The notes under the pieces were generated by a model that searched no databases, was not told the origin of the DNA, and saw only the letters and a list, made by a program, of their open reading frames with translations. This document shows, one piece after another, positions 7,971 to 61,900 of a stretch of DNA of 64,000 nt. The stretch comes from an uncultured Leptospirales bacterium (lineage in GTDB: Bacteria; Spirochaetota; UBA4802; UBA5550). Made by a program: the position numbers and the translations under genes. The stretch's first letter is position 1. The number at the start of each line of letters is the position of its first letter. The stretch lies in NCBI GenBank assembly GCA_964529415.1, contig CAZGWD010000002.1, positions 222,089 through 286,088 on the forward strand. The letters are read 5' to 3'.

Positions 7971-8044
7971 CACGCCCGGCAGGAGTCGAACCTGCGACGC
8001 ACGGATTCGAAGTCCGACGCTCTATCCAACTGAGCTACGGGCGC
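7971..8044 (-). tRNA. tRNA-Arg, anticodon read as UCG
   Basis: Reverse complement GCGCCCGTAGCTCAGTTGGATAGAGCGTCGGACTTCGAATCCGTGCGTCGCAGGTTCGACTCCTGCCGGGCGTG folds as a cloverleaf with 7-bp acceptor, D-arm, anticodon loop CTTCGAA and T-loop TTCGACT. The 5' end resembles E. coli tRNA-Arg. Confidence 0.8.
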
Positions 8045-8076
8045 GTGCATGTTCCAAAAACTGCTCTTGGGTTTCA

Positions 8077-9054: not shown

Positions 9055-9057
9055 GAT

Positions 9058-43648: not shown

Positions 43649-44734
43649 TTATAACTTTTTTATAATATACTCTAATCCGTATTTAAAATCAATCTTTTTC
43701 CATTCATGAGCCAGAATTATTAATGAAAAAAGTGTTAAAGATATTGCTAAAATTGTAAAATTACTGTCAAACACCTTATAAAAACCAAGAAGCATGCTCA
43801 TTTCTTCAAATATCATGATATGAACTACAAAAACAGTAAAGGAGATTCTTCCGAGATTTGAAACGGGCTGGAACAAATTGATCATTTTATTATTAAAATA
43901 GTAAAACATATTAATCAGTAATATAGATAGACCGGATAATACAAGAATTGCCGGAGGCATAGGCGGGAAAAAATATGGAAGAGTTACAAAGAACCTATAG
44001 AAAGGACCATAAGTTGCAAAGGCATAGCCTGACTTGTACATAATGCCGAGAGCCAGACCAAGAATAATTAATAATAAGCCTGTGATACCCTGCAATTTCC
44101 TGTTGGCTGACAAATGTATTTTTGCAGAAAACATACCAAGAGCAAAAATACCAATCCAGGGAAATACCGGAAAATGCCCGTTTATAAAAATTAATCGCAT
44201 CACATCAAATAGATTTCCTGCATTAGAAAGGAAAAAGTCATCTAAAATTAGAGGGGAATTGACTGCTCCTTGTAAAAAACCGGCTATAATCAATGTTGCA
44301 AAATAAAATGAAATTAACATTGCTGATCCTAATTTGTTCAGCAATGGAAAAAGTATAAGTGAAAATCCTATCAGGTTGAGTACAAACCATGATGCAGGCT
44401 TGAACCAGTGAAATGCTGATAAATTAAGGAGATATCCAGCTATAATGAGTATTATACCCCTTTTAATTATGACTGAGTATTGTCGTGATTTGTTAAATTG
44501 AAGGACTGCACCGAATCCAGAAAGGGATATAAATACAGGCGCAGCAAGAAGTCCCGAAAGATACATCCATCCAAGAATAAAGGATTTTTGAAAAAGTACA
44601 TCCTGTGAAATTACAGGTTCGTTCCATAGCCATGCGATAAGATGCTGAGTAATCATTAAAATTACAGCCAATCCGCGGAGTGCATCAATCGATTGGAGCC
44701 GGTCCGAAATTTTTATATTTATACTTAAATCCAT
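43649..44734 (-). CDS. Polytopic membrane protein, acyltransferase-3/DUF1624-like
   Basis: N-terminal SIDALRGLAVILMITQHL and ~10 predicted TM helices. Confidence 0.45.
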   Translation of the reverse strand: MDLSINIKISDRLQSIDALRGLAVILMITQHLIAWLWNEPVISQDVLFQKSFILGWMYLSGLLAAPVFISLSGFGAVLQFNKSRQYSVIIKRGIILIIAGYLLNLSAFHWFKPASWFVLNLIGFSLILFPLLNKLGSAMLISFYFATLIIAGFLQGAVNSPLILDDFFLSNAGNLFDVMRLIFINGHFPVFPWIGIFALGMFSAKIHLSANRKLQGITGLLLIILGLALGIMYKSGYAFATYGPFYRFFVTLPYFFPPMPPAILVLSGLSILLINMFYYFNNKMINLFQPVSNLGRISFTVFVVHIMIFEEMSMLLGFYKVFDSNFTILAISLTLFSLIILAHEWKKIDFKYGLEYIIKKL

Positions 44735-44985
44735 TTAAACGGGTTATCTTCCTAAAATAATAGCTTGTATTTTAATGATTAAAGTTTTAATTAGCATTTT
44801 ACATTCTTGAACAGTTTGTCAATAATTATAGTTGCATTTAACTACCAAAAAGCATCAGAATGTCTCTTGAAACGAAGAAACATAATAAAATATTTTTATA
44901 CTTAACAAATTACACAATGAATATAAAGCAGATTCTTAATGAACTTTTTTCCCTATACTGTTTTTACAGGATAATTTTTATTTAG

Positions 44986-46128
44986 ATGAAAAAAACAATA
45001 ATAATATTTTTAATATCTCTTTCGTTTTTAAATCTCCTGTTTCCGGCTGATCTAAAGGAAGAAAAAAACGAACAACTGATATTTGCAATAACAACACTTT
45101 CATCAATAAATCTGCAAAGCGGAATTGGAGAGAAATTTTCAGATTCCATAAGAACACGGCTCCAAATGGAAAAGTCATTTATGGTTGATGAGGCAATCCT
45201 ACAGCCGGAAAAAGAATTCATCACAGAGTGTTCTAATGGAAAGTGTCCGCAGTCCTTCCTGGATCAATACAGAGGTAAAATTGTAATCATCGGGAGCATC
45301 ACAAGGATAATATACAAGATCGGAGAAAAGCCTATAAGTAAATACGCAATAGAAGATCTGATGGATGAGAAATTTATTCTTTCAATGCAGGTGGTTGATA
45401 CCCGCACCGGTAAAATAGATCTCAGCATTAAAAAGGAATTTGCAGCAGCAGCCCTTCTGGATGCCGAAGCCGGAAAAATCAGCAATGAAATCAGAGACTA
45501 TTACTTTAAAGCTCCAGTAAAACCTGTTATAAAAGCAAAGGAAGAAGAAAAAATTAAGTCAAAGGAAGTAGAAAAGAATATTGAAAAGAAGTCTGAGAAG
45601 AAAAGCGAGCGTATATTTGCTGTCAGCGGTATCGGCATTGCTCCTGCTTTTATCATACCATTGGAAAAATTTGCCAGGATGTCTGATTTTGGTTTTGGCG
45701 GAGAAGTTGAGGTTTTTTTCAGTTTTTTAAAATATAGAAATATTTATTTAAATCTGGGGTTGGAATTTTACGGACTTAATCCGACACGGGATAATATTAA
45801 AAGCGACTGGATTCTCTCCCCTCGGATTTCGGCAGGATATATTTTTACAATCGCAGGGAATTTTTTCATTACTCCCTATATGCAGGCAGGATATATTTTT
45901 CAGTTTGTAAATGGAGACATCAATGCTGCTCCTGGAAGTGCTTCGTTTAATTACAAGAATGAAATATTTTACAATCCTTCATTCGGAATAGGAGCTGAAA
46001 TCGGATACCGGATCAACAGCCGGATTCAGCTGTATCTGAGTCCATCATACCATTTTTTTATAGAACAGAATTCTGTTTTTCATTTTATGAAAATCAATAT
46101 TGGAATAAGGATGAATTGGGAGCCATGA
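44986..46128 (+). CDS. Hypothetical secreted/outer-membrane protein
   Basis: Signal peptide, a Lys/Glu-rich linker, and a C-terminal region rich in aromatic/Gly beta-strand-like segments. Confidence 0.35.
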   Translation: MKKTIIIFLISLSFLNLLFPADLKEEKNEQLIFAITTLSSINLQSGIGEKFSDSIRTRLQMEKSFMVDEAILQPEKEFITECSNGKCPQSFLDQYRGKIVIIGSITRIIYKIGEKPISKYAIEDLMDEKFILSMQVVDTRTGKIDLSIKKEFAAAALLDAEAGKISNEIRDYYFKAPVKPVIKAKEEEKIKSKEVEKNIEKKSEKKSERIFAVSGIGIAPAFIIPLEKFARMSDFGFGGEVEVFFSFLKYRNIYLNLGLEFYGLNPTRDNIKSDWILSPRISAGYIFTIAGNFFITPYMQAGYIFQFVNGDINAAPGSASFNYKNEIFYNPSFGIGAEIGYRINSRIQLYLSPSYHFFIEQNSVFHFMKINIGIRMNWEP

Positions 46129-46718
46129 AAAAATCACGAAAGATTGTTGTTGATAAAAAATTTCAGATAGGCCTTGCTGCCTCAGTAACCGCATTATCCG
46201 CTCTGACCTTTTCAATTGTGATTCTTATCATTGCAGTCACATCTATGGATAACAGCCGTAAGCTTGATGTGGTTGCGCATAACCAGCAGAGTCTTTCCGG
46301 AAACCAGGAGGAAATATTCAAAACCCTGATTTCCTTTTCACAAATGAAAGATCTGACCAGAATTCGTATTCACGCCCAGACTATAGATAAAGATATAAAA
46401 ATAAACAGAGCACAGTTTTCTGAAAACACTAAGATTATGCTCGAGATCAACAGGAACAATAAAATATTAATCCTGATTCTGATTATCTTTGTAACGGTCC
46501 AGTCTGTTTTTCTTTTTTATCTGCTGATAAAGAGGTCTCACAGAATATCAGGACCAGTATTTCTCCTGAACCGTTATATCAGCGAGCTTAAAAAAGGGAA
46601 GTTCCCTGAAATAAGGCCCCTTCGCACCAGGGATGACTTCAAGGATCTTTTTGATAATTTCAGAGAAATGGTTGATTATTTCAAGAAAAAGCGGAGAACC
46701 GTATCCAAAAAAGACTGA
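46116..46718 (+). CDS. Hypothetical membrane protein
   Basis: 200 aa with two TM segments; overlaps the upstream gene by 13 nt. Confidence 0.35.
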   Translation: MGAMKKSRKIVVDKKFQIGLAASVTALSALTFSIVILIIAVTSMDNSRKLDVVAHNQQSLSGNQEEIFKTLISFSQMKDLTRIRIHAQTIDKDIKINRAQFSENTKIMLEINRNNKILILILIIFVTVQSVFLFYLLIKRSHRISGPVFLLNRYISELKKGKFPEIRPLRTRDDFKDLFDNFREMVDYFKKKRRTVSKKD

Positions 46719-46851
46719 TTACATTGAATATTTATAAAATTATTTTTTTATTAATTTTAATTAAAAATGTTTGTTGAAAAAAATCAAATTGTAATTATTA
46801 ATGCATAACTGAAATACAATTTAAATTTTTATTTGAAATGGAGTACTAATA

Positions 46852-48345
46852 ATGAAAATTAATAAACTTAATATAATGCTGTTTCTTATTATACTTTCAA
46901 TTTTTTCATGTTCGAAAATTCCTGACAATTTTACAAGCGAATGGGAATCAGCATCAATAATTTCACCCGCTGGAACAATTTTAATTGATAATAATAAATA
47001 TTATACATCTGCATCCAGCGTTACAATAACCAATATAGTTTCTGACGCTGATCAGATGCAGTTCAGCAATGATGGAACAACCTGGAGCGTATGGGAGACA
47101 TATTCTCCATCCAAGTCATGGTCTCTTGAAAGCGGGCACGGACAAAAAACTGTTTACGGGCAGTTCAGGAAGACAGGTGGAGGTATTACCCTACTTACTG
47201 ATACAATAGTACCGTTAAATAAAGAAAAAATTATTTCAAGCGATGGTGTAGAGTATGATAATTTCGGAGGAGGAAACTGGGGATTCACCACAAATGTATT
47301 AGCTTTATCAAATGATGGAAATACTCTGTTCGTTGGATGTTTTATTAAAAATAAAGTTTATATCTATAAAAAAAATTCCAGCGGCACATGGATTGAAACA
47401 AAAATCCTGTCGCCGGATGCGGCTCGCTACTTGCATTTTGGTCAATCCCTGGCATGCTCAGATGATGCTTCAACACTTGTAATAGGCGCCTTAGGCGGAC
47501 CTATAGGTGCAATTTTTATTTATACATGGGATGGTACAACGTATAATCCGGTTAAGACAATAGAGTATGTCAGCAATCATGACTTTGGAGTAAATGTCTC
47601 AATTTCTGATAATGGGAATAAAATTCTTGTGGGAGCATGGCATTCAGATTCAGCCTTTTTGTATGAAAAAGCAGGCAGTGACTGGAATATGACTAAACAG
47701 TTTGTTCCGTCTGATGGATTAACAGGAGGTATATATGGTGTTGGCGTAAAAATTGCCGGAGATGGAAATACCATAGTAATAGGCGCGCCAACTCAGAATG
47801 GAAATATTGGATCTGTATATATATATAAATGGAATGGAATTGCCTGGAGCTTCCTGTTGAAAAAGACTTCCCCTTATGCAACTCCGGACCTTTTTGGACG
47901 GCATATAGACATCACAACAAACGGCGAAAGAATAATTGTTGGATTAAGATCATGGACTAATGGAAGTGCAGTTCAAGGAGCGGCATTCTTATATGATTGG
48001 GATGGTATAACATATAATTTATCACATACTTTTCAGGCCTCAGACAACATTACCGGAGCAGATGATAAATTCGGTTATTGCGTATCAATGAGTTCAGATG
48101 GAAATATTATAGCGATCAGCGCTCCTGGGACCTCTTATATTGGCAATGGTAAATCATATATATACAGGTTCAATGGATCTGGATGGAATGAAGAATATAT
48201 AATTAATGAATATATTGGAGTGAATGAATATATTTACGGTAATTTAATTTTTATTTCAGGAGATGGATCAACTATTGCAGTAGGTACACCAAGAGATATT
48301 GTGAATACAAATATAGCTCAGGGATCAGTTTATCTCTATTACTGA
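46852..48345 (+). CDS. Secreted FG-GAP-like repeat (beta-propeller) protein
   Basis: Repeated FGxSVxxSxDGNTxVxGA....GxVYxY modules occurring seven or more times. Confidence 0.5.
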   Translation: MKINKLNIMLFLIILSIFSCSKIPDNFTSEWESASIISPAGTILIDNNKYYTSASSVTITNIVSDADQMQFSNDGTTWSVWETYSPSKSWSLESGHGQKTVYGQFRKTGGGITLLTDTIVPLNKEKIISSDGVEYDNFGGGNWGFTTNVLALSNDGNTLFVGCFIKNKVYIYKKNSSGTWIETKILSPDAARYLHFGQSLACSDDASTLVIGALGGPIGAIFIYTWDGTTYNPVKTIEYVSNHDFGVNVSISDNGNKILVGAWHSDSAFLYEKAGSDWNMTKQFVPSDGLTGGIYGVGVKIAGDGNTIVIGAPTQNGNIGSVYIYKWNGIAWSFLLKKTSPYATPDLFGRHIDITTNGERIIVGLRSWTNGSAVQGAAFLYDWDGITYNLSHTFQASDNITGADDKFGYCVSMSSDGNIIAISAPGTSYIGNGKSYIYRFNGSGWNEEYIINEYIGVNEYIYGNLIFISGDGSTIAVGTPRDIVNTNIAQGSVYLYY

Positions 48346-48432
48346 TATTAACTATATAATCTGTTTTTCTTCCTAAATAATCAATAAAGACTTTTATTGA
48401 TTATTTTAAATATACATACAAATAAAAAATTG

Positions 48433-49425: not shown

Positions 49426-49710
49426 TAATTACTCCTCTTAAAAAACTATGATTTTTCAAATATATTTATATTTATAAAATTTCTTAAAAGTATTTTTTTA
49501 TTTATTTTCAAGTGAAGACCGTTCTTAAAATAGAATGTTACCCGCTGCTTAACATGATACATACATCAGCATGCCGGAATTAAAAAAGCAACTATAATTC
49601 ATTAAAAATTTTTCTGCCGGAAGCAGGAGATAATAAATTTTCAATTTAGATCATGTAATAAAAAAAGATTGCATTTTGAAAAAATATATTCATAATGATA
49701 AATAATCATT

Positions 49711-52182
49711 ATGAATATATTAAAATTAATACTAACTGTTTTAACAGGAGTTTTAATTCTTTCAGCCTGCGCCAATAATGCAGGCAAAGAACGCCTGAGC
49801 TATGCTGTTAACGGATTTCTTGATCTTTCAGGACGGGACCTGAAAAATGGCGACACAATCAGACTCGATGGCGAATGGGAATTCTACTGGAACCGGCTGC
49901 TGACACCTGATGATTTTTCATCTGCCGAACCTCCTGAGAAAACCGGAAACATCACCATACCATCATACTGGAACGGATATAATACCGGCATAGGAACTGC
50001 TGGAGGAGAAGGATTCGCCACATACAGACTTAAAGTGAAAATTAAAGACGGAGGAAGACTTTATGCTTTAAGAATAAAACACATGTTCACTGCATACAGG
50101 TTATGGGTAAATAATAAAATTGTGGCTGCAAATGGAACAGTCGGCAGGGACAGAAAATCAATGGAACCGCAGTTTCTTCCCCTCGTAGCTGTTTTTAATC
50201 CTCAATCCGATGAATTTCAGATTATAATCCAGATTTCTAATTTTTATCATGCAAACGGCGGCTTCTGGGATTCAATTTCTCTTGGAGATGATGAAACTAT
50301 CAGGTTCGGGCAGATACAGTCTCTGTTTTTTGAAATTTTTTTATTTGGCGTCCTTATTATAATGTGCATCTATTATATGGCTATTTTTATTCTGAGACGC
50401 CAGGACCATACATATTTATTTTTCAGTCTGTTGTGTTTTATAATTGCACTGAGAATACCATTTGTAGGAGAACGCTTTTTCATTTATTTTTTCCCGTGGC
50501 TGGACTGGGAGTTCTCTGAAAAAATCGCTTTTCTTACAGCTAATTTCGGAATCGTAATCGGAAATCTTTTTCTTTACTGGCTCCTGAAAAAGGATTATTC
50601 AAGGCTGATAATAAAAATCAGCACCGGATTTGGAATCACATACAGCCTTTTTGTTATTTTAAGTTTTTCGCGGTATTACTGGTACTCGCTGTATTTATTA
50701 TATGCAATTTTTCTGATATGGCTGTTTTACGATTTCTTCATAATAATAAAAGCTTCGATAAAAAAAAGAGAAGGCGCTGCATTTCTTATAACAGGTATAG
50801 CCTTTATATTTGCAGCTGTTGTTCTTGAAATCCTCTATCAGCTCCGGATAATAAATATCGGTCATGTGGCGCCATTCGGTTTATTTATTTTTATTATTAT
50901 GCAGGCGCTTATGCTGTCTTACAGGTATTCATTGTCATTTGAGAGGGTGGAAATGTTATCCCGTGAAAAAGCCGCTCTTTTTACAAGCGCCATTCAGATT
51001 ATTTCCTCATTGATTCTTGACAGCTCCACCAGGCTTTATGAAAAAACCCAGAATGTTACGAGAATATCAGTAATGCTTGCGCAAAAACTCGGTTATGATA
51101 TAGAAAAGATCGAGGAGATCAACATAGCATCGCTGCTTCACGACATCGGGATGATCGGGCTTCAGAATATTACTTCTGAATGGAGCGGAAAACCAAGCAA
51201 CGATGAAAAGCGGATGATCGAAAATCATCCAAGACGAAGCATTTATATCATCAGAAATCTCAGAGAGCTGGATGGCGTTAAAACCATCATTGAACAGCAC
51301 CACGAGTCGTATGATGGAAGCGGATTCCCAGCCGGTCTCAAAGGTGCACAGATTAACAAAGGCGCATCTATTATCAGGATTGCGGATGATTTTTTTACTA
51401 TGCTTGCCATTCCGGACTACCAGGATATTGACAGGAAAGAAAAAATAATCCGGTACATAAATGAACAGAAAGGACGCATTTATCCGCCTGATGTTGCTGA
51501 TGCTTTTATATCTCTCATAAATGATGAAAATCTGCTTTACGAAGCTCATAGAGACGATATCTCATCAAGCGAAGAAAACGGCACGCTGACATGGAGAATG
51601 CCGAGCGCCCTTCACCTGGAAAGCTTAATGATTGCACGCGTAATGGACAAACTTAAAGAGCTGACTGATATTGATGAGGCCTCCATAAATTCTTTTGAAT
51701 TCAGCATAGGAGAAGTGGTGCGTAATGCTGTAATTCACGGAAATAAATATAATATAAACAAGTTTGTAACTGTGAGGCTCAGGGTGGGTGATAATCTTTC
51801 AATGAGCAATGGATATAAAAAAGTTGAGATATCTGTTATTGATGAAGGTGAAGGCATGGACTTCAATGTTTACACCCACTTCAAACAGCTGAGATCGGAT
51901 TTCAGCAGCGCAATTAAGTATATCAGGGAACAGAGAGATATAATAACTGATGCAGAAAGAAAAAGCTCTTTCACGAAAATAATCAAAAATTTTGAAGAAT
52001 TCCAGCTTAAATACTTCTTTGATTTCAATAAATTCATGCAGAGAAAAGGGGCTTACCTTTCAGGCGGTTTAGGGCTTCTTTATGTGCTGCGGACATTTGA
52101 CAATGTAGAATTCAGGAAAATTACAGATGAACACAGGGTATGCGGCATGGAAATAATTATGGAAAAAAACATCAGCTATTAA
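49711..52182 (+). CDS. 7TMR-DISM receptor fused to an HD-GYP phosphodiesterase and a C-terminal RsbW-like HATPase (Ser kinase) domain
   Basis: 7TMR-DISMED2 ectodomain and 7 TM segments. HD-GYP reads LLHDIGMIGL...HHESYDGSGFPAGLKG. HATPase_c reads EVVRNAVIHGN...ISVIDEGEGMD...SGGLGLLYV. 823 aa. Confidence 0.75.
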   Translation: MNILKLILTVLTGVLILSACANNAGKERLSYAVNGFLDLSGRDLKNGDTIRLDGEWEFYWNRLLTPDDFSSAEPPEKTGNITIPSYWNGYNTGIGTAGGEGFATYRLKVKIKDGGRLYALRIKHMFTAYRLWVNNKIVAANGTVGRDRKSMEPQFLPLVAVFNPQSDEFQIIIQISNFYHANGGFWDSISLGDDETIRFGQIQSLFFEIFLFGVLIIMCIYYMAIFILRRQDHTYLFFSLLCFIIALRIPFVGERFFIYFFPWLDWEFSEKIAFLTANFGIVIGNLFLYWLLKKDYSRLIIKISTGFGITYSLFVILSFSRYYWYSLYLLYAIFLIWLFYDFFIIIKASIKKREGAAFLITGIAFIFAAVVLEILYQLRIINIGHVAPFGLFIFIIMQALMLSYRYSLSFERVEMLSREKAALFTSAIQIISSLILDSSTRLYEKTQNVTRISVMLAQKLGYDIEKIEEINIASLLHDIGMIGLQNITSEWSGKPSNDEKRMIENHPRRSIYIIRNLRELDGVKTIIEQHHESYDGSGFPAGLKGAQINKGASIIRIADDFFTMLAIPDYQDIDRKEKIIRYINEQKGRIYPPDVADAFISLINDENLLYEAHRDDISSSEENGTLTWRMPSALHLESLMIARVMDKLKELTDIDEASINSFEFSIGEVVRNAVIHGNKYNINKFVTVRLRVGDNLSMSNGYKKVEISVIDEGEGMDFNVYTHFKQLRSDFSSAIKYIREQRDIITDAERKSSFTKIIKNFEEFQLKYFFDFNKFMQRKGAYLSGGLGLLYVLRTFDNVEFRKITDEHRVCGMEIIMEKNISY

Positions 52183-53161
52183 TAATACTGAAAATTAATT
52201 CTGTAGATTCTCTTGGCATAAGATAGAGTTTAAGCTGTTCAGTTAATTCAGGCAGTGCCAGATATTTTGCTGTTGATATAATTACTGGTTCAAATGAACC
52301 ATCTTCCTTAATTGAATAAATACCGCCCGAGCTGGTATAAAACATTATTTTTTTATTTTTTCCGATTACCTCATCGCCTCTGCCCAATGCAATAATTTTC
52401 TCTCCAATTCTGATATCTCTAAAAAAAGTATATGTCAGGGCTACAGTAATACCGCCCTGGCCTGATAAAAATAATCCGCCCCATCCCATGATTTCATCTA
52501 TCAGGGCTAACGGAGCAACCGGGTGTACTGTTTCTTCATTTTTAAACCAGAAAAAATTATTATCATCTTCTCTGTCAAGTCCTGCCAGTGAATAAACAAT
52601 TTTTTCATCTGAATTGTTTAATAATTTAAACTCTCTTTTCAAACCAGGATACTTTCTATCATATCCGCAGACAAGACAGTCTTTATAGCGCGGCAAGGTC
52701 ATGTTTTCATTATTGCGTACAATGCATTGGGATATATGTTGTTCATTAAAAAATCCCGGTGTATATTGTTCATTACATTTATAGTATACTTTTGCTGCAA
52801 TATAAGGATGCTGATTGCCTGCAACAGATATTGAACCGGATGCTCCATATTCTTCAGGAGAAACTTTTAACAGGACTGAATCTCCTATCTGAACCTTTGC
52901 TCCTCCAAGATGAAAATCAATTTTTTTCGGGAAGATCCCGGAATTATTTTCCGGATAATTATCAAGGCCTGATATCAGTTCTATAATTGCACCCATGCCG
53001 AAACCGCCGTGCGGCAATCCAATCCATCCTTGAGTTCTTCCATCCATTATGAATTCTGTATAGAGTTCTTTTGTGTTGTCGTCTTTTTTAAAACCTCTGA
53101 TTAAAAATCCGTCTTCAGAACAGCCTATGCAATGGTTGTGATTCTTTATTTTATATTTCAT
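52172..53161 (-). CDS. Hypothetical protein with two CxxC pairs
   Basis: 329 aa; CIGC near the N-terminus and CLVCG mid-protein; no confident family assignment. Confidence 0.35.
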   Translation of the reverse strand: MKYKIKNHNHCIGCSEDGFLIRGFKKDDNTKELYTEFIMDGRTQGWIGLPHGGFGMGAIIELISGLDNYPENNSGIFPKKIDFHLGGAKVQIGDSVLLKVSPEEYGASGSISVAGNQHPYIAAKVYYKCNEQYTPGFFNEQHISQCIVRNNENMTLPRYKDCLVCGYDRKYPGLKREFKLLNNSDEKIVYSLAGLDREDDNNFFWFKNEETVHPVAPLALIDEIMGWGGLFLSGQGGITVALTYTFFRDIRIGEKIIALGRGDEVIGKNKKIMFYTSSGGIYSIKEDGSFEPVIISTAKYLALPELTEQLKLYLMPRESTELIFSIINS

Positions 53162-53188
53162 TTTATTTCCAAAATTATTTTTTTATAA

Positions 53189-53294
53189 GGAAAAGTCCGT
53201 TATATAATTAAAAAATCTCTTAAGCAGCCCTGCTTTTATTGAGACAGATTTATAATTTACTAAAGATAAAAGCAACTATAATTCTTGACTTTCC
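53189..53294 (+). repeat. Copy C of the ~105-nt intergenic element (GGAAAAGTCCG ... AAAGCAACTATAATTCTTGACTTTCCG)
   Basis: Nine-bp inverted termini. It lies in the divergent promoter region between the 52172-53161 gene and 53340. Confidence 0.6.
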
Positions 53295-53339
53295 GTACGC
53301 GTATTGAAAATATTAATTACATTTTACTGAGGTTAAGAG

Positions 53340-55217
53340 ATGAAAAGCAATGCCGCAGCTCTGATATTTTTTTTATGCTCAATTATATTTCAGATTAATG
53401 GATTGAATCACCTCCAAGCTGATCCTGCTGTAATTGTAGACGGATCGCCTTCTGAGTGGGGGTCTCTTGACGCTGAGCAATTTATAAAACCTGCAAGTGC
53501 CTCAACCGGAATTCAGATTGCATCGCTATCTGTACACAGGAAGGGTGAATTTTTCTTTTTTCTCATGACGTTTCAAGACAGCATAGATACAAATCCCAAA
53601 TTAAGGTATTTCATAAACTTCAATACAGATGATAACAACATAAGCGACTTCCAGGCTGCTGTCTCTCACGGCACAAAAGGTGATACAAGCAGGTTTAAAA
53701 AAGACTGGTCTACTTATGATTTCAAAACAATGGACACAGCGCCCGGATTCAAGTCGGCCATGGGGAGTGCTGTGGAATTCCAGATTCCGGTATCCATGTT
53801 TAAAGGACGAAACGCTTTTGGTTTTACAGCAGGTGTATGGGACACTTCAAAGGCAATTGCCCTTGATTCATTCAGGGGGTATTATACTAAACTGAAAATA
53901 CACTATACCCTTACTGTTCTCGACCCTGGAAAACATCTCGTAAAAATAGATGCAAAATTTACCGGTTTTCCGGATGAATATATCAACCTGCATTTTCCGC
54001 CTAATTATCCGCAGGCTGGAGAGATCACAGTCAAAGATTTAAAAGCCGCCGGCTCTGACAGAGTGAAGCTGGATATATCCCGAAAGAAAAGTACATACTT
54101 AATCAAAACCGGAAAATCTGCCAAAGAATTTTCACTCAGCTATATGCTGGCGATGAACATGTACCATGACTCACCTGTACGCGGACCTGCAGGATATTTA
54201 TGTAAAAGCTACATGCTCACAAGCACATGCTGGAGTCTCATCTCGCCCGTAACCGAAGAAGCGCGCGAGTACCGGCTCACTTTGAATCTTCCTGAAGGCT
54301 GGGTGCCGGTTGTGCCGTGGAAAAAGTCAGGAGCAGAATTTATAGAAACTGACACGTCTCTGTTCAGACAGACGACATTCGGAGCGGGGCTGTTTGATAT
54401 ACAGAAAAAATGGATTGCAGGCACTGAAGTGACTGTTGCGGTTGATTCGCATTTCGATGAAAAGTTCCGTAATGAGCTGTTTAAAAATTCTTTCATGTCG
54501 TTCGCGTTCATCAAGTCTATATTCAACGCACAGGGGCCTGCAGCGCACCTGTCAATATTCGCCAAGCCGGAGGGAGAAAACGAATGGCAGTCTTTCAACG
54601 AGAACGGACTCAGCCAGGGGGAAGCAGTCAATGATATGAACAGCGCAGTGTACCAGTTTACACACAGGGTCTTTCATTCATTCAACGCGTTTTATCCGGC
54701 AGGCATGGATATTGAACCTACATGGTTTCTTGAAGGTGTCAACGAATACTATTGTGCGCTCGCCAAAATTAAAGCCGGTACAGAGGCTCCGCTTCATTCG
54801 CTATCTGATTTTTATTTCAATGAATATATTAAAAAGCGAGCAAAACTTGACGCACCGCTTATTGGGAACACCCGCTTTCCTGCTGACTGGGAAAAAGAAA
54901 ATTTTCTCGCATACAAAAAAGGGGCTCTTGCAGCGCTTCTTCTTGATATTGAGATCAGGCGCCTGTCAGACCATAAGGCCTCTTTGAATGATCTGATCTC
55001 CGCTATATACAAAACACACGGCCAGTTCAAAGGAATAAAAGTTACAGATGAGATTATTGAAAAAACCGCTTCCATGGTCACAGGCAAGGATATGAAACCA
55101 TTTTTCAATAAGTATATCTACACTGACACAAAGTACGACATGGTCAAGCTATTCAGTGATGACAACAGCAACGGGATATGCAATGCAGCTGAAGAAATCA
55201 TACTGCATTTAAAGTAA
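53340..55217 (+). CDS. Secreted protein with a zinc-peptidase-like C-terminal half, possibly non-catalytic
   Basis: Signal peptide; the C-terminal region FTHRVFHSFNAFY....EGVNEYY resembles an M1/M61-type HExxH...E arrangement but with HRxxH; 625 aa. Confidence 0.4.
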   Translation: MKSNAAALIFFLCSIIFQINGLNHLQADPAVIVDGSPSEWGSLDAEQFIKPASASTGIQIASLSVHRKGEFFFFLMTFQDSIDTNPKLRYFINFNTDDNNISDFQAAVSHGTKGDTSRFKKDWSTYDFKTMDTAPGFKSAMGSAVEFQIPVSMFKGRNAFGFTAGVWDTSKAIALDSFRGYYTKLKIHYTLTVLDPGKHLVKIDAKFTGFPDEYINLHFPPNYPQAGEITVKDLKAAGSDRVKLDISRKKSTYLIKTGKSAKEFSLSYMLAMNMYHDSPVRGPAGYLCKSYMLTSTCWSLISPVTEEAREYRLTLNLPEGWVPVVPWKKSGAEFIETDTSLFRQTTFGAGLFDIQKKWIAGTEVTVAVDSHFDEKFRNELFKNSFMSFAFIKSIFNAQGPAAHLSIFAKPEGENEWQSFNENGLSQGEAVNDMNSAVYQFTHRVFHSFNAFYPAGMDIEPTWFLEGVNEYYCALAKIKAGTEAPLHSLSDFYFNEYIKKRAKLDAPLIGNTRFPADWEKENFLAYKKGALAALLLDIEIRRLSDHKASLNDLISAIYKTHGQFKGIKVTDEIIEKTASMVTGKDMKPFFNKYIYTDTKYDMVKLFSDDNSNGICNAAEEIILHLK

Positions 55218-55229
55218 ACTGAAAGTCTT

Positions 55230-57191
55230 TCACACAATATCGATGATGATCAGTGTAAAATCATCATCGAAAGCTTTGAAAGAATTCCATTCGCTTAAAG
55301 CATTGTATATTAATTCTATTGTTTCATTTATAGAAAGATTTCTATTCTTCATAAAAAAAGCATTCAGCCTTTCCTGCCCGAATATCTCTCTCCTTTCGTT
55401 ATGAACTTCAACCAGACCATCTGTATAGAGAATTATTCTGTCACCTGAATCTATATTAAACTCAAAAATTTCCAGATCTATATCAGGCTTGAATCCAATA
55501 ATCATTCCACGGGGTTTGTATTGATGCATTTCCGCTTCACTGTTTTTACAGGATATATGAAGCAGCAGTTCATGACCGGCCCTTGCGAATTTCGCTTTTT
55601 TTTCCAATGCGCTGATATAACAATATCCTGCTGTCAGAAAATTGCCTTCCATCTTGTCAAAGAGATACCTGTTCAAGCCCTTAATAAACAGATCCGGATT
55701 TGCATATACTGGAGCGAGTGTACTGAATAAAATTTTAACCATTGAAGCTATCAAAGAGGCAGGTATTCCATGACCGGAAACATCAGCAATGAGTACTCCA
55801 ATCTTATCCTGTTCAGGAAAATGAAAATTATAGAAATCACCGCTTATATCATCTGCCGGGATATATTTTACTCCTATGCCGAACGCGCTGGATTCAGGAA
55901 GTATTTCTGGAACATTAGCGAGCTGAATTTTTCTTGCTATGGAAATTTCATTTTCAAGTCGTGCCAGCCGTTTACCCTCTTCCATCTTTTCCAGCAGAAT
56001 AATATTCAGCTGCTCAGAAGTATTCAGATTATAAATAAACCTGTTTACGAGCTGAAGTCCAATAAGGATCAACATGAAAGGAACTCCAATAGGATAAAGC
56101 GGAACGCCTCCTTCAAATAAATGAAGGCTGAATACAAGAATATCATATATACCAAAAATAAAAACAGGGAGAAGCGTTAAAAAAAGCATACGCCCTTTCT
56201 TATTTCCGGAAATGAGCTGGCGTATGGAAACAATGACAATATCCACTATATATATAGGAATAAGCAGCAGAAAAATATTTCTCCAGAGAATAATATAATA
56301 ACGGTCCTGAGACAATGACATAAGTAATGCAAAGGTAACCGGCAGAAAAAGATATATCACTATTCTTTTCCATTTAACACCGACATCTAAATAACTTCTG
56401 AAAAAGAAAGCAAGAAAAGGTGGAAAAAAAATAAGACCTATTGCGCATATTTTAAAAATTGTATTGGAAGACAAGGGAAGATATGGATAGAGATTTTCAA
56501 CAAACTGAAGAATCGTCATATCAGAGAGTAAAAAGGTCGCACTTGCGTAATATAAATACACGATCTCCTTTTTTCTTTTCAGATATATTGTTATGAATAA
56601 TAGAGAAAAACTCATTAGGAGAATCCATAAAGCATGTATGAATTCTATCTGTATAAAATTTTTATACATGAATTCAAAGTTGCCGCTTTCTTCATCAATG
56701 ATCCTAATCGGCGATATGAACCAGAGTTCAGCATTAAAATAATTGATTATATCTATACTGTTTTCTCCATGGATTAAGAATTCAGAATGTAATGGATAAT
56801 TGCGGAACTTGGACCATCCTGATTTGAAGTCAGGCGGGAATTTGCCGGTATTCCCGATTTTTTTCCCATTGATATAGACTATATCAGTGTTCATTATCTC
56901 TCCGGCCTGAAAGACCAGATTTTCCGAGGATGTGTTATTTATCTTTACTGTTTTTCTATATAGTATATATCCACTTGAAATATTATTTTTTTCAGCAATT
57001 ATTTCGAATAGTCTTCTATTGGGCAGTTGCACTGATTCCCATAAGGTATTTTCTGCAGGGGGGTAATCCTTTTCAGAATTTATCAGACAGTATTTCCATG
57101 TACCGGACAAATCGATTTCCGTACCGGCAAACGCTTCGCTTGCGGCTATTAAAGAAATCATTATGAATAATGTGATATATTTGAGCCGCAT
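55230..57191 (-). CDS. 7TMR-DISM receptor fused to a PP2C/SpoIIE-type phosphatase (RsbU-like)
   Basis: Signal peptide, 7TMR-DISMED2 ectodomain (IDLSGTWKYCL), 7 TM segments, and a C-terminal SpoIIE/PPM domain GVLIADVSGHGIPASLIASMVK...LYTDGLVE; 653 aa. Confidence 0.8.
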   Translation of the reverse strand: MRLKYITLFIMISLIAASEAFAGTEIDLSGTWKYCLINSEKDYPPAENTLWESVQLPNRRLFEIIAEKNNISSGYILYRKTVKINNTSSENLVFQAGEIMNTDIVYINGKKIGNTGKFPPDFKSGWSKFRNYPLHSEFLIHGENSIDIINYFNAELWFISPIRIIDEESGNFEFMYKNFIQIEFIHALWILLMSFSLLFITIYLKRKKEIVYLYYASATFLLSDMTILQFVENLYPYLPLSSNTIFKICAIGLIFFPPFLAFFFRSYLDVGVKWKRIVIYLFLPVTFALLMSLSQDRYYIILWRNIFLLLIPIYIVDIVIVSIRQLISGNKKGRMLFLTLLPVFIFGIYDILVFSLHLFEGGVPLYPIGVPFMLILIGLQLVNRFIYNLNTSEQLNIILLEKMEEGKRLARLENEISIARKIQLANVPEILPESSAFGIGVKYIPADDISGDFYNFHFPEQDKIGVLIADVSGHGIPASLIASMVKILFSTLAPVYANPDLFIKGLNRYLFDKMEGNFLTAGYCYISALEKKAKFARAGHELLLHISCKNSEAEMHQYKPRGMIIGFKPDIDLEIFEFNIDSGDRIILYTDGLVEVHNERREIFGQERLNAFFMKNRNLSINETIELIYNALSEWNSFKAFDDDFTLIIIDIV

Positions 57192-57395
57192 AAATTATTA
57201 AATTTCCTGTTTGTTATATGATCATTATAGAATGTTTGTTGAAGAATTGCAATTTATTTTTTATTAACCGGTGGCTGGTTCGATTCCGCTTACCAGCTGA
57301 TAACCCCTGTGTCAGCAGCAATTTTTCAGCTTTTAAAATTAGCCCCTATTTCAAAATTTCACGCAAAAAACCTTCTCTGACTGGATCATATTTAC

Positions 57396-57641
57396 ATGAA
57401 TTATAAAACTTTCTGCATAGAAACCTTCGGCTGCAAGATGAATAAAAACGATTCAGAGCTGATCTCCGCTATATACAAAACACACGGCCAGTTCAAAGGA
57501 ATAGAAGTTACATATGAGATTATTGAAAAAACCGCTTCCTTGGTCACGGGCAATGATATGAAACCATTTTTCAATAATTATATCTACTCGGACACAAGGT
57601 ACGACATGAATGTTTATCAAGTTTTGTTATTGAAATATTAG
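57396..57641 (+). pseudogene. Chimeric ORF fusing a diverged copy of the miaB promoter/5' end to a copy of the 3' end of the 53340-55217 gene
   Basis: The first 24 aa (MNYKTFCIETFGCKMNKNDSELIS) parallel the MiaB N-terminus at 58864. The next ~50 aa are ~93% nt-identical to 54995-55160. The junction lies in the shared CTGATCTC. Confidence 0.6.
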
Positions 57642-57702
57642 GGATGCTTTTTTTAATTATACAGACATTCTAAAACTATAAAAAATTCAGGCGGGAAATG
57701 AC

Positions 57703-58686
57703 ATGAAACGCGGTTTGAACTTATTTTCGTATTTACTATTAATTTCAGGTATTTTATTTCTGGGCAGTCTAAATTCAATTTTGAAAGCTGAAGCTGTATT
57801 TATGAATGATGGCTCAATTATTGAATGTAAAGTCATAAGGGACACTGATAAAGCAATTACAATTCAACCGAATACCGGACAGGCCAGGGTAATTCATAGA
57901 AAGGACCTCATTCGTGTACTATATAGTGACGATTTCAGGAATAAAGTATTTATTTACAAGCTTGATGACAGGCTTGTTGAAGGCTATATTGTATATGAAG
58001 ACAGGGATAACTATACGATAAGAGAAGATCTTTCATCTCCAATTGAGCTTACAATTGCAAAAAACAAAGTAAATTTCATTTCAAAGAAAAAAGTTGTTCC
58101 GACTATTATAGAAAAAAAGGCTGAAGCAGAGAAAGGAGTTGAGGTCGAGGAAAGCAAACGTCTTTTTGGAATAGACTGGGGGCTGGGAATCGGGTTTCCT
58201 ATTTATTTCAAAAAATATATTTTATCTGATGAGACTGGTGCAAATACTTACAATGCTACTGCAGGAATATTAAGTTTATTGGGGATTAAAATACATACTT
58301 TTTTTGATTTCAGATTCAATATACTCAGCTGGTTAAGCGCAGGGGCGGAAATAGGAATTAATCTTTTCCCGAATGTAGCAAATTTAGCTGGCGGAGATTA
58401 TGTATATGCAGTATATCCTGTTTTTAATCTTGATATACCATTAAGAGGATTTTTAAGATTCGGGAAAAAAAACTACTACGGACAGCTTTTCGGAGGATAT
58501 TACCTTGGTGTTTTACCAATAGTATCAATGGGGTCTAACATCTATTATGAGAGAGGAGGAGAATTGGGAACCAGGATTAATTTATGGGGATTTTTCCTCG
58601 AATTTTCATTTGTTTTTGCAAATACGGAAGCTAACAGTTATGACCATGCAAGATTTGCTCTTGGTTATACCGGAAGAATATTTTAA
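57703..58686 (+). CDS. Hypothetical outer-membrane beta-barrel-like protein
   Basis: Signal peptide, alternating beta-strand-like segments, C-terminal aromatic residue (...TGRIF). Confidence 0.4.
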   Translation: MKRGLNLFSYLLLISGILFLGSLNSILKAEAVFMNDGSIIECKVIRDTDKAITIQPNTGQARVIHRKDLIRVLYSDDFRNKVFIYKLDDRLVEGYIVYEDRDNYTIREDLSSPIELTIAKNKVNFISKKKVVPTIIEKKAEAEKGVEVEESKRLFGIDWGLGIGFPIYFKKYILSDETGANTYNATAGILSLLGIKIHTFFDFRFNILSWLSAGAEIGINLFPNVANLAGGDYVYAVYPVFNLDIPLRGFLRFGKKNYYGQLFGGYYLGVLPIVSMGSNIYYERGGELGTRINLWGFFLEFSFVFANTEANSYDHARFALGYTGRIF

Positions 58687-58863
58687 TCAGTAAGTTGTTA
58701 TATTAAATCAAAATAAACCGCCTTAATCCAGGGCGGTTTATTTATTTGTTTTTTATTTATAGCTATTTTCGATATAAAAACAAAAAGTTTATCATAACGT
58801 CCCCTATTCCTCACGAATATAAAAATTTCTTGTAAAAAACCTTCCCGAAGTGAAACTTGCAAT

Positions 58864-60183
58864 ATGAAATATAAAACCTTCTACATTGAAACATTCGGCT
58901 GCCAGATGAATAAAAACGATTCCGAGCTGATCTCTCTATCCATGCTGGAACACGGATTTACTGAAACATCAGTGGAAGAGGATGCAGACATTATAATTTT
59001 CAACGGATGCTCGGTAAGGGAAAACGCGGAGTCGCGTGCTGTTTCAAGAATCCGGTCAGTTAAGAACAGAAAAGAAAAGATTGTCGTGGCAGCAGGCTGC
59101 ACAGCCCAGAGGATCGGGAAAGAAATCATTGAAAAGAAAAAAGCGACAATTGTAGTTGGACCTTATCAGGCACCGGAAGCAGGAAAAATAATTTCTGATT
59201 ATATAGCAAAACGCAATTCACCGAAAATATACCTCTCCCAGGATAAAAAAGATTTTCAGGGAAGATTAAATTCCGGTATTGCGGAACATAGAAGGGAACA
59301 TCCCTGGCATGCGTGGGTTACGATAACGCACGGCTGCGGGAACAACTGTACATACTGTATTGTACCTGAAGTAAGAGGAAATCTCATTTCTTTCCCGTCT
59401 TCTGAAATCATTGAATTTATAAAAACCTTAACAGGAACAGGGGTAAGGGAAATTACCCTGCTCGGGCAGAATGTAAATCAGTACGGCCAGGACCTGAATG
59501 ATATTACATTTAACAGCCTGCTTGAAAAATGCACGCGAATTGACAGCATTGAGAGAATTCATTTCATGACTTCACATCCCAGAGATTTCAGTGCTGACAT
59601 TATAGACACCATTGCAGGAAATGAAAAAATTTCAAAATCAATTCATCTTCCGCTGCAGAGCGGCTCAAATAAAATTCTCGCTGCGATGAACAGAGGGTAT
59701 ACCATTGAAAAATATATTGAGATAACAGATATACTGAAAAAGAAAATAAATGATTATTCCATTACAACTGATTTCATAGTAGGATTTCCAGGCGAGACCG
59801 ACAGAGATTTCAGAGACACGATAGATGCAGTTAAAAAAATTCAGTTCCACGATGCGTTTATGTTTGCCTATTCGCCGAGAAGCGGAACACCCGCTGCAGC
59901 GCTTAAAGAAACACTGACCAAAGAACAAAAACAGGAAAGACTCGGCGAGCTCATTGACATACAGAGAGTGATATCACATGAAAAGCTCGTAAGCAGAATC
60001 GGCCGCATAGATGAGGCAACAGCAGAAAGAGCAAGCAGACGCTCTCCGGGAAAACTCATGGGGAAAACAAATCTTAATCACCCTGTTATATTCGAGGGAG
60101 TTGAGAGCGATATCGGGAAAAACCTGAAAATAAAAATCAACGGCGTTAAGGGCTCATCTCTTCAGGGGAGCAAAGTCCCTTGA
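58864..60183 (+). CDS. miaB: tRNA-2-methylthio-N6-dimethylallyladenosine synthase (MiaB-family radical-SAM methylthiotransferase)
   Basis: FYIETFGCQMNKNDSE N-terminal MTTase domain, radical-SAM CGNNCTYC, and a C-terminal TRAM domain; 439 aa. Confidence 0.8.
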   Translation: MKYKTFYIETFGCQMNKNDSELISLSMLEHGFTETSVEEDADIIIFNGCSVRENAESRAVSRIRSVKNRKEKIVVAAGCTAQRIGKEIIEKKKATIVVGPYQAPEAGKIISDYIAKRNSPKIYLSQDKKDFQGRLNSGIAEHRREHPWHAWVTITHGCGNNCTYCIVPEVRGNLISFPSSEIIEFIKTLTGTGVREITLLGQNVNQYGQDLNDITFNSLLEKCTRIDSIERIHFMTSHPRDFSADIIDTIAGNEKISKSIHLPLQSGSNKILAAMNRGYTIEKYIEITDILKKKINDYSITTDFIVGFPGETDRDFRDTIDAVKKIQFHDAFMFAYSPRSGTPAAALKETLTKEQKQERLGELIDIQRVISHEKLVSRIGRIDEATAERASRRSPGKLMGKTNLNHPVIFEGVESDIGKNLKIKINGVKGSSLQGSKVP

Positions 60184-60205
60184 AAAGCACAGCTGCGCAA
60201 AAGCA

Positions 60206-61327
60206 ATGAAACCAATTATAAAAAAAATATTAATTCTGATATTATCATTTACTGTTACCGCTTCCGCAAAAGACAAACCGGATATGGAATTATTTAATAA
60301 AATAAAAAGCTCTACAGATAAAAGGGAAACAGCTGAAAATCTTTCAGCCCGGTTTTTAAAAAATTTTCCTGACAGCGTTTATGTTCCGGACGTTAAAATG
60401 ATCCTGGCTGATATCGACCCTCACCCTTCTTCTGCAGTTAAAAAATACAGGGCTGTAATTGATAAATACAAAAACTACAGTAAAAAGGATACTGCATATT
60501 TAAAAATTTCAGAGATACTGCATATTCAATCCAGATGGGATGAGCTTTTAAAAATATCATCAGAGGCATTAAGAAAATTTCCTCAAAGCGGATACACTGT
60601 CAGCTTCAGGGTTTTTTCTGTTTTGTCTCTTCTCAATTCAGGAAGGTTCGATGAAGCAGACAGGGCATGCAGAATTTTAAATAACGAAAATCACGGGTAT
60701 GAAGATTTAGCCTCGTCTCTGATTATAATGTCTTACATAATTAAAAATGAAACCGGCCATTCAAAGGAATATTTTTCGCTATTATCGGAACTTGCAGCAG
60801 GGTTCAGCTCATCAACGAACCATCCTGTAATACTGTATCTCCTTGCCGATTATTATGAATCGAGGAAAAACTACAATAAGGCTTACAGCGCGTATTCCGA
60901 TATTATTGGACTTTATCCAAAGTCTCCTGAAGCATCCATATCCTCAGAAAGAATAAAAAAAATTCAGAAATTTAACCCGAAAAAAACAGCGTACCTTCCG
61001 GAAAATAATTATAAAGAAGATTCAACTTCAATAGACATTAAGCCCGAGAATGAAATTGACAATTCAGATCCTGAAACATATTATTCTGTATCTGTCGGAA
61101 GTTTTTTTGATAAAAAAGAAACTCTGGAAATAAAAAAAATTACCGACAAAATTGGCGACTCGGTAACAGTTAAAGTAAAAAACGGATATATTATTTATCT
61201 TGGAAGATACTCCACACAGGATGAGGTCATTACAGCCAAGATCCGTCTTGCCGAGGAATACGGAATTAATGGAAACATAGTTCGCGTATCCGGCGGCAAA
61301 GATAAACGATATATATACGGAGAATGA
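60206..61327 (+). CDS. TPR-like repeat protein with a C-terminal SPOR (peptidoglycan-binding) domain
   Basis: Signal peptide, helical-repeat body, and C-terminal YSVSVGSF...YIIYLGRYSTQDEV... Confidence 0.55.
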   Translation: MKPIIKKILILILSFTVTASAKDKPDMELFNKIKSSTDKRETAENLSARFLKNFPDSVYVPDVKMILADIDPHPSSAVKKYRAVIDKYKNYSKKDTAYLKISEILHIQSRWDELLKISSEALRKFPQSGYTVSFRVFSVLSLLNSGRFDEADRACRILNNENHGYEDLASSLIIMSYIIKNETGHSKEYFSLLSELAAGFSSSTNHPVILYLLADYYESRKNYNKAYSAYSDIIGLYPKSPEASISSERIKKIQKFNPKKTAYLPENNYKEDSTSIDIKPENEIDNSDPETYYSVSVGSFFDKKETLEIKKITDKIGDSVTVKVKNGYIIYLGRYSTQDEVITAKIRLAEEYGINGNIVRVSGGKDKRYIYGE

Positions 61328-61366
61328 AAATTATTTACTTGATAAAAGAATCGACCGAAGGAAAAT

Positions 61367-61407
61367 ACCCCCTCTACCCTGCGGGCATCTCCCCCTTGGT
61401 AAGAGGG
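61367..61407 (-). repeat. G-rich hairpin repeat, inverted copy with an 11-nt insertion
   Basis: The reverse complement CCCTCTTACCAAGGGGGAGATGCCCGCAGGGTAGAGGGGGT aligns to the family consensus. Confidence 0.5.
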
Positions 61408-61441
61408 AGAATCAACTTAATACAGAATTAATTGATTAATT

Positions 61442-61900
61442 TTGCTCGAAAACACTTTCCCCCTTACCAAGGGGGATGAAAGGGGGTTTTTGGTGACTCT
61501 AGTTTACAATAGAAAGACCGAAAAAGAAAAACGTAGAATTTTAAGAAATGACATGACAATTGCAGAAAATACTATCTGGCTGGAATTAAAGGAAAAAAAA
61601 TTTAATGGAATAAAGTTCAGAAGGCAATTCAGTATAGGCCCATATATTGCAGATTTTTATTCACCAAAAATGAAACTTGTAATTGAAATAGACGGCAGTT
61701 CACATTCTGAAATTGATGCTATAGAATATGATGAAGTAAGAAATAAATATATTGAGTCATTAGGAATAACAATCATCCGTTTCAAAAATTATGATGTTAT
61801 GAATAACATGGAAACAGTACTTGATATATTAAAACAAAAGATTCAAAGTCTCCCCCCTTACCAAGGGGGGACGGAAGGGGGGTATGACAATAGATTCTAA
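61442..61900 (+). CDS. DUF559 endonuclease-like protein (Vsr/restriction-endonuclease-like fold)
   Basis: RRILRNDMTIAENTIWLELK...FRRQFSIGPYIADFY...LVIEIDGSSH...IIRFKNYDV. The likely real start is the GTG at 61493, after an AAGGGGGT SD supplied by the flanking repeat. Both ends of the track ORF are translated from G-rich repeat copies. Confidence 0.7.
   Translation: MLENTFPLTKGDERGFLVTLVYNRKTEKEKRRILRNDMTIAENTIWLELKEKKFNGIKFRRQFSIGPYIADFYSPKMKLVIEIDGSSHSEIDAIEYDEVRNKYIESLGITIIRFKNYDVMNNMETVLDILKQKIQSLPPYQGGTEGGYDNRF
61457..61487 (+). repeat. G-rich hairpin repeat (TTCCCCCTTACCAAGGGGGATGAAAGGGGGT). It supplies the SD for the DUF559 gene.
   Basis: Direct repeat of 61851-61883. Confidence 0.6.
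61851..61883 (+). repeat. G-rich hairpin repeat (TCCCCCCTTACCAAGGGGGGACGGAAGGGGGGT). It supplies the SD for mutS.
   Basis: Direct repeat of 61457-61487, ending 1 nt before the mutS ATG. Confidence 0.6.

Follow-up and report, generated by a model that had tools for sequence, protein, structure and literature searches.

In a 64-kb stretch of contig CAZGWD010000002.1, from the genome of an uncultured Leptospirales bacterium (hereafter the window, whose coordinates are used throughout), the miaB gene is preceded by a second copy of its own 5′ end fused to a fragment of another gene. The locus comprises, from left to right, a peptidase-M61-N-like gene (here called pep), a receptor phosphatase gene of the 7TMR-DISM/SpoIIE(PP2C) type in the opposite orientation (the PP2C gene), a short chimeric open reading frame (ORF), a cassette carrying a gene designated ORF327, and intact miaB. 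An initial annotation of this DNA had proposed a recombination scar in which direct repeats and the chimeric ORF bracket the PP2C gene. The elements of the locus are given below. L004 is the close relative with which they were compared, P1 and P2 are the two copies of a pep segment, M1 and M2 the two copies of the miaB 5′ segment, and J1, J2 and J3 the junctions between segments.

53340-55217, plus strand: pep, 625 aa, an ORF with a weak Pfam match to Peptidase_M61_N
54990-55142, plus strand: P1, pep codons 551-601, the functional copy of the 153-nt repeat
55230-57191, minus strand: PP2C gene, encoding a 7TMR-DISM/SpoIIE(PP2C) receptor phosphatase (Pfam SpoIIE, 3.5e-39)
57192-57343, no strand assigned: PP2C-miaB intergenic region, taken as ancestral, aligning to L004 9754-9939
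57344-57466, plus strand: M1, a decaying copy of miaB −62 to +71, contiguous with the preceding intergenic region
57396-57641, plus strand: 81-aa chimeric ORF, made of MiaB residues 1-23, pep residues 553-601 and 10 new codons
57459-57466, plus strand: microhomology at junction J1, CTGATCTC, common to miaB +64 to +71 and pep
57467-57608, plus strand: P2, a decaying 3′-internal fragment of pep, 153 nt when the junction overlap is counted from 57456
57609-58801, plus strand: cassette X, 1.19 kb, which carries ORF327 and its intrinsic terminator and is absent from the L004 locus
57703-58686, plus strand: ORF327, 327 aa, within cassette X
58802-58934, plus strand: M2, the conserved functional miaB −62 to +71, with a peptide identical to that of L004
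58864-60183, plus strand: intact miaB, 439 aa, with UPF0004, radical SAM and TRAM domains, 94% identical to L004 at the amino acid level

The PP2C gene and the 81-aa ORF are separated by 205 nt, within which a promoter scan placed a PP2C promoter-like site at 57252-57224 on the minus strand; a strong intrinsic terminator follows ORF327 at 58711-58743. A repeat search and local alignment matched P1 with P2 (57456-57608) over 153 ungapped nt, 143 of them identical (93%), including an exact run of 45 nt. The 135-nt part of this repeat that is carried by an independent contig gave a BLAST E value of 6.5e-54. Similarity ends sharply past ...TACGACATG (55142 and 57608). Thus the direct repeats described initially, of about 165 bp and about 93% identity, are real and lie on either side of the PP2C gene as proposed, but they are 153 nt long, the right ends first assigned (55160 and 57630) overshooting by some 20 nt. 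The second copy of the miaB 5′ end is equally real; its identity, put at about 75%, proved to be 90% in the coding part (64/71; 57396-57466 against 58864-58934) and 81% over 114 columns when the upstream part is included (57353-57466 against 58822-58934). Homology between M1 and M2 sets in at CCCCTATT (57344 and 58802), and M1 has an 11-nt deletion.

At J1 (57466/57467), position +71 of miaB is joined to nt 1651 of pep on the same strand, so that a downstream sequence continues head-to-tail into one lying 2.4 kb upstream. The octamer CTGATCTC is exact in both parents (54993-55000 and 58927-58934) and in the chimera (57459-57466), bearing out the earlier proposal that a shared octamer joined the two genes into an 81-aa chimeric ORF; the fusion is in frame. 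Counting the preceding GA, the match amounts to 10 of 11 positions. The window contains 4 matches to the octamer, 2 being expected, so it is not especially common there; the templates of M1 and P2 both lie within 2.5 kb. At J2 (57608/57609), past ...YDM, pep and its orthologues continue as conserved sequence (VKLFSDDNSNGICNAAEEII / DVLFSDEDRDGLCNAVEELI) and P2 continues into unrelated sequence; J2 is therefore a true breakpoint. The converse arrangement, in which pep originally ended as "...YDMNVYQVLLLKY" and P2 with the cassette would be ancestral, was rejected since the orthologues continue past YDM as P1 does. J3 (58801/58802) marks the onset of M2 similarity to both M1 and L004.

Relatives of the locus were sought by a MiaB-based scan of species-representative genomes. 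The sole close one was L004 (CAYMPH010000003.1), an uncultured Leptospirales metagenome-assembled genome (MAG) from project SRP302447 with a MiaB 94% identical in amino acids; the other genomes reached at most 55-56%, and a metagenome scan with MiaB yielded none closer than 56%. In L004, a PP2C orthologue of equal length (653 aa, 94% amino acid identity, 7792-9753) lies directly upstream of an uninterrupted miaB. BLASTN aligned window 55193-57466 collinearly with L004 7755-10071 (88.9% nucleotide identity) and window 58801-61378 with L004 9940-12539 (87.7%), the two L004 ranges overlapping by 132 nt; other collinear blocks were 77-90% identical. Window 57467-58800 had no L004 counterpart in this comparison, and both pep and ORF327 were without a tblastn match in the 21-kb L004 locus. 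The intergenic region 57192-57343 aligned to L004 9754-9939 with 90% identity over its first 91 nt and one 32-nt indel. Divergence of the PP2C gene between the two genomes is 0.30 at synonymous (dS) and 0.03 at nonsynonymous (dN) sites.

Because L004 has the PP2C gene beside an intact miaB in a collinear alignment, the order PP2C-intergenic region-miaB is taken to be ancestral. These alignments identify the PP2C gene as an old resident and stable element of the locus, not an insert, and 57467-58801 as the newcomer: 1,335 nt made up of the P2 patch and the 1.19-kb cassette, flanked by the duplication of about 133 bp of the miaB 5′ end. The suggestion that the PP2C gene had arrived at the locus is thus not sustained, the gene being syntenic with miaB in L004 and the lineage-specific part being 57467-58801. 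The 81-aa ORF is absent from the L004 locus.

The two copies of each segment have not changed at the same pace. In a three-way comparison of the 71 coding nucleotides of M, with L004 as the outgroup, M1 showed 6 unique changes, M2 a single silent one, and L004 5, all in third positions. Three of the M1 changes are nonsynonymous (K2N, Y7C and Q14K) and affect conserved MiaB residues, Q14K falling in the FGCQMN motif; the M2 and L004 peptides are identical in this part. In the sequence preceding the ATG, M2 closely matches L004, and M1 lacks 11 nt. For the P part, the outgroup was locus L001, which carries a pep orthologue 68% identical in amino acids. Here 7 changes are nonsynonymous and 1 synonymous, giving dN=0.061, dS=0.070 and dN/dS ~0.86 between P2 and P1. 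P2 carries 5 of the 7 amino acid differences, at residues conserved between P1 and L001, and P1 carries 1. These patterns show M1 and P2 to be the decaying copies, which evolve free of the constraint on their parents and have probably drifted neutrally since the event. The decay amounts to about 0.05-0.06 substitutions per site, which is small compared with the window-L004 dS of 0.30 (PP2C) or 0.54 (miaB) and therefore places the event well after the split of the two lineages.

A different divergence of the two halves had initially been thought to imply at least two events. In the coding parts the halves are indistinguishable (7/71 against 11/153 as entered, the exact P count being 10; Fisher p=0.60), so two events are possible but not required. 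The additional divergence of M1 upstream of its start codon is not usable as a clock because it is M1-specific and clustered; it looks like the outcome of one or two multi-nucleotide events rather than of clock-like drift. Positions −21 to −1 of M1 (57375-57395) are almost unalignable with M2 and L004 and, along with the 11-nt loss near 57352, exceed the change in the rest of the scar. No second copy of the −21 to −1 block was found in the window or in 169 fetched loci. A short-patch replacement could account for the block, as could selection acting on the leader or promoter once duplicated.

We interpret the 81-aa ORF as a decaying pseudogene: given that M1 and P2 appear to have drifted neutrally, the fusion would be a scar and not a gene. 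Purifying selection on the ORF was not seen, small numbers as these are (P2 dN/dS ~0.86; 3 nonsynonymous changes in 23 MiaB codons). A sigma-70 scan detected no promoter in M1 or M2. A protein search with the chimera returned nothing although its parent is in the database, and is thus uninformative. One could argue instead that the fusion is a newborn functional small protein or regulatory leader, and that the duplicated miaB promoter may also drive ORF327: the two parts are fused in frame, with the ATG retained and no stop codon inside, no terminator-like site separates the fusion from ORF327, and the M1 leader is remodelled beyond what drift would predict. We consider this improbable. Conserved residues of both parents are altered, dN/dS is about 0.9 in the longer half, the conserved upstream region is 11 nt shorter in M1, there is no known homologue (the protein search being uninformative and L004 lacking the ORF), and an in-frame fusion has a prior probability of 1 in 3. 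For annotation purposes, the ORF at 57396-57641 would be better described as a pseudogene or chimera than as a MiaB-like small protein.

The direct repeats that bracket the PP2C gene, together with the motif GGTTCGATTCC at 57279-57289, which resembles a T-loop, had raised the idea that a small island integrated at a tRNA-derived attachment (att) site, bringing or rearranging the PP2C gene. The T-arm-like motif is indeed present, but its identity as a tRNA or att remnant is unsupported. It lies in the ancestral PP2C-miaB intergenic region; L004 has the same stretch without the rearrangement, reading GGTTCGGCTCC at the equivalent spot, and the stretch thus predates the event. ARAGORN found one tRNA only in the 64 kb, Arg-TCG at 7970-8044, whose T-arm GCAGGTTCGACTCCTGC does not match the motif, and Rfam at E≤10 returned no tRNA or tmRNA for 57150-57750. 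No integrase or transposase was detected by Pfam among ORFs of at least 120 aa between 42.8 and 61.9 kb; the domains found there were only those of signalling, outer-membrane, FG-GAP, peptidase-like, MiaB, TPR/SPOR and DUF559 proteins. In addition, the PP2C gene, which P1 and P2 bracket, is present in L004 and syntenic with miaB there, and the repeats represent pieces of two separate protein genes rather than one att core. We find integration of this kind scarcely credible. The scar does resemble integrase islands in that an insert is flanked by direct repeats of the target end and an intact target is regenerated; it differs from them in having no integrase, tRNA or att core, in the fusion of its left repeat to an unrelated gene fragment, and in the asymmetric decay of the repeats, pseudogene against gene. 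Insertion of a transposon or insertion sequence (IS) was likewise rejected: no transposase was found in the same interval, the repeat search revealed no terminal inverted repeats at the insert ends, and the flanking duplication is about 133 bp as against the 2-14 bp target-site duplication of such elements.

The T-arm-like hairpin was also considered as a structured RNA and rejected, its stability being no better than that of shuffled sequences (z −0.9 to +0.1). Its stem (57273-57299; L004 9835-9862) shows one apparent compensatory change, GCTGG...CCAGC against CCTGG...CCAGG.

For a MAG-derived sequence such as this one, the possibility that assembly wrongly joined strain variants or repeat copies had to be weighed. 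The same project contains a sister population at about 88-90% nucleotide identity, an exact 45-nt stretch is common to P1 and P2, and J1 is without independent confirmation. On the other hand, a Logan contig (L084) from a single run, SRR13723397, is 100% identical to 57474-59063, so that this assembly, too, runs from the single-nucleotide differences specific to P2 through the cassette and M2 into the start of miaB. The contig starts at the last 30 nt of the 45-nt run, as expected of a k=31 graph. The 8-nt overlap between M1 and P2 cannot be an assembler join: it is far below any assembler k-mer, hence the J1 sequence must exist in reads. Furthermore, M1 and P2 have diverged by 7-10% from their parents in a pseudogene-like pattern, not by the 0% of a collapsed repeat, and the PP2C segment is 89% and not 100% identical to L004, so it was not borrowed from the sister population. 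We treat the structure as real and regard an assembly artefact as very improbable.

We consider it probable that the scar arose by microhomology-mediated illegitimate recombination, with a junction of the tandem-duplication type, after the split from L004 and independently of homologous recombination. DNA ending at miaB +71 would have been joined through CTGATCTC to the internal pep site 2.4 kb upstream, the chimeric ORF being a by-product; to this extent the initial annotation's reading of the region as a microhomology-mediated scar is upheld. The product has the order PP2C gene, intergenic region, M1, P2, cassette (ORF327 and terminator), M2 and rest of miaB. A same-strand join from a downstream to an upstream site at a short microhomology is the classical signature of RecA-independent tandem duplication or template switching. 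Microhomologies of 5-25 bp are a recognised class for RecA-independent junctions in bacteria, of the microhomology-mediated end-joining type (bioRxiv 10.64898/2026.05.22.727201). Under every route considered, intact miaB and the region immediately upstream of it survived because the leader and start were duplicated, and the preservation of miaB is presumably why the rearrangement could persist.

Several points weigh against this interpretation. J1 lies just outside the Logan contig, and neither reads nor a second assembly have shown it. For the ancestral state there is one genome only, L004, which could itself have regained the simple order through recombination between M1 and M2. No match to the cassette flanks (57609-57677 and 58693-58801) was found in the window or in the 169 fetched loci; with the source of the cassette not found, microhomology at J2 and J3 is not scorable. 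The change upstream of the M1 start codon is far above the prediction of uniform decay and hints at an extra small event or at selection, and the 3 synonymous-type unique changes in M1, against about 0.7 expected, are borderline high.

The data show the structure, the microhomology, the ancestral state, the decaying copies and the absence of tRNA, integrase or IS hallmarks; the enzymology of the event is an inference, and two routes can be envisaged, which we consider about equally likely. In the first, a single replication or repair event would have switched template three times, leaving miaB at +71 for pep nt 1651, moving on to the cassette source 153 nt later and returning to miaB at −62; no unstable intermediate would be needed. 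In the second, 54990-57466 would have undergone a 2,477-bp tandem duplication, and the cassette would later have taken the place of the second copy's interior (the end of pep, the duplicated PP2C gene and part of the spacer). Each of these steps would be commonplace, but the unstable duplication would have to persist until the second event. A simple microhomology-mediated tandem duplication would resemble the scar in the head-to-tail join of miaB +71 to pep, in the exact 8-nt match within the 5-25 bp class, in the in-frame chimeric ORF and in the absence of the junction from the sister genome. It would differ in that only the ends of the second copy exist here (P2, 153 nt; M2, 133 nt), the interior being an unrelated cassette. 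Replacement of the interior by the cassette calls for either a further event or a one-step mechanism of another kind.

Such a one-step mechanism could take the form of gene capture through multiple template switches, akin to microhomology-mediated break-induced replication (MMBIR), with duplication of the miaB promoter and start. Synthesis from a 3′ end that had broken or stalled within the miaB leader would copy −62 to +71 and switch at CTGATCTC to pep for 153 nt, then to an ectopic or foreign ORF327 template, and finally back to miaB −62. What is known of fork stalling and template switching (FoSTeS) and of MMBIR comes mainly from eukaryotic copy-number variants and E. coli amplification experiments. 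The scar is like their products in its short patchwork (133 nt of miaB, 153 nt of pep), in the microhomology join, and in the re-entry upstream of the exit point, which yields a flanking duplication; it is unlike them in that only one of three junctions can be inspected here and the mechanism is read from the end product alone. We view one-step capture as possible but doubtful. If true, it would represent a natural bacterial MMBIR-like capture of a new gene in which the housekeeping gene stays intact and the cargo is perhaps driven by the duplicated promoter.

Another way to account for the topology in a single event would be homology-facilitated illegitimate recombination with horizontally acquired DNA. 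The donor would have carried a truncated pep, ORF327 and miaB, with a homologous anchor inside miaB, and its other end would have been illegitimately joined at CTGATCTC to the resident miaB +71. In keeping with this, ORF327 has no orthologue at the sister locus and its nearest homologue (74% amino acid identity) is in another metagenome; a related population also co-occurs in the project runs (SRR13723393/94/96 for the L004 protein, SRR13723397 for that of the window). P2 and M1, however, resemble decayed resident copies; with a single unique change in M2, and with the P2 changes being nonsynonymous and at conserved sites, a diverged donor is superfluous. The donor would also need a pep gene cut off precisely at codon 601 and already attached to the cassette, a requirement that only shifts the problem elsewhere. 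We therefore judge a horizontal origin of this kind unlikely. Homology-facilitated and short-patch double illegitimate recombination share with the scar the integration of non-homologous DNA at a microhomology junction, and ectopic patches are a source of clustered polymorphisms, possibly like the −21 to −1 block of M1. The scar differs from the homology-facilitated process in showing no evidence of a diverged donor or of a homologous anchor tract. The patches here (133-153 nt plus 1.2 kb) are longer than in typical short-patch events.

Microhomology-mediated illegitimate recombination, which we prefer, makes the scar an ordinary event of a known kind that adds no new type of system and opens no long-standing question. 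As a natural instance of illegitimate recombination in an uncultured spirochaete, the locus would nonetheless be clean and datable. It would show that gene insertion at the 5′ end of a housekeeping gene is tolerated through duplication of the leader and start, and it makes the rate of decay of the redundant pieces visible.

The gene delivered by the cassette belongs to a small, lineage-restricted family with 12 proteins in the database. The closest homologue of ORF327 (74% amino acid identity) is on a JGI metagenome contig, where a 51% paralogue forms a tandem with it. In the L004 genome the family is represented only by a 53% paralogue, located elsewhere (L086, 10001-11890). That paralogue adjoins a tRNA-Arg 95% identical to window 7948-8013 (part of the window's tRNA-Arg); a type I restriction-modification system and a gene for a reverse transcriptase come next, in an island-like, retron-like arrangement at the tRNA; the neighbourhood of tRNA-Arg in the window contains no ORF327 paralogue. 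The ORF327 protein combines a signal peptide and a conserved N-domain with a K/E-rich linker; its C-terminal domain is all-beta and closes with ...GYTGRIF. An AlphaFold2 model (pLDDT 58.6, strands 75-89) gave weak Foldseek matches to the 8-stranded barrels Ail, OmpX and the OmpA transmembrane domain (E ~3e-3, target TM ≤0.56). Tentatively, this fold prediction makes ORF327 a probable small outer-membrane beta-barrel protein. GC and skew profiles revealed no compositional anomaly of the cassette.

The parent gene of the P2 patch has a history of its own. The pep orthologues (68% and 53% amino acid identity) extend past ...AAEEII, and pep of the window is truncated at its 3′ end at about 55195. 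In the L001, L002 and L003 orthologues, ...AAEE(I/L)I is followed by TSP3-like DxDxD repeats; the window ORF ends in LHLK*, at the point (~55195) where homology to the non-coding 3′ flank of the L004 PP2C gene begins. Judging from these alignments, the truncation marks a separate, independent rearrangement junction. The family has 11 database matches, and its context differs from genome to genome (IS91 and group II intron for the 68% orthologue, Bat operon for the 53% one), no context being shared among the genomes compared. In L001 (6440-14611), the orthologue is split by a frameshift into ORFs of 424 and 218 aa and lies amid IS91-family (Y2 transposase) genes and a group II intron reverse transcriptase. 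This suggests that the pep family tends toward unstable regions.

The wider neighbourhood is a patchwork relative to L004, and no mobile-element genes that would explain it were found in the interval covered by the Pfam search. Window 49462-55193, comprising a 7TMR-DISM-HD-GYP gene (823 aa), orf329 and pep, replaces L004 4858-7755, which holds a 698-aa 7TMR-DISMED2/7TMR-DISM/SpoIIE gene and a DUF4468 gene. The replaced block has a tocopherol-cyclase-like gene and the PP2C gene as conserved flanks and contains no mobile-element genes. Two further segments are present in the window only: 44695-48370, with a 380-aa ORF (weak OMP_b-brl match), a 200-aa ORF and a 497-aa FG-GAP repeat protein, and 61378-61859, a DUF559 gene (Vsr-like endonuclease fold) being located at 61442-61900. 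Finally, a terminator-like hairpin with a 12-bp stem is found on the minus strand at 55240-55270, inside the last codons of the PP2C gene (DDDFTLIIID region). It sits where the two convergent genes meet and is kept in L004.

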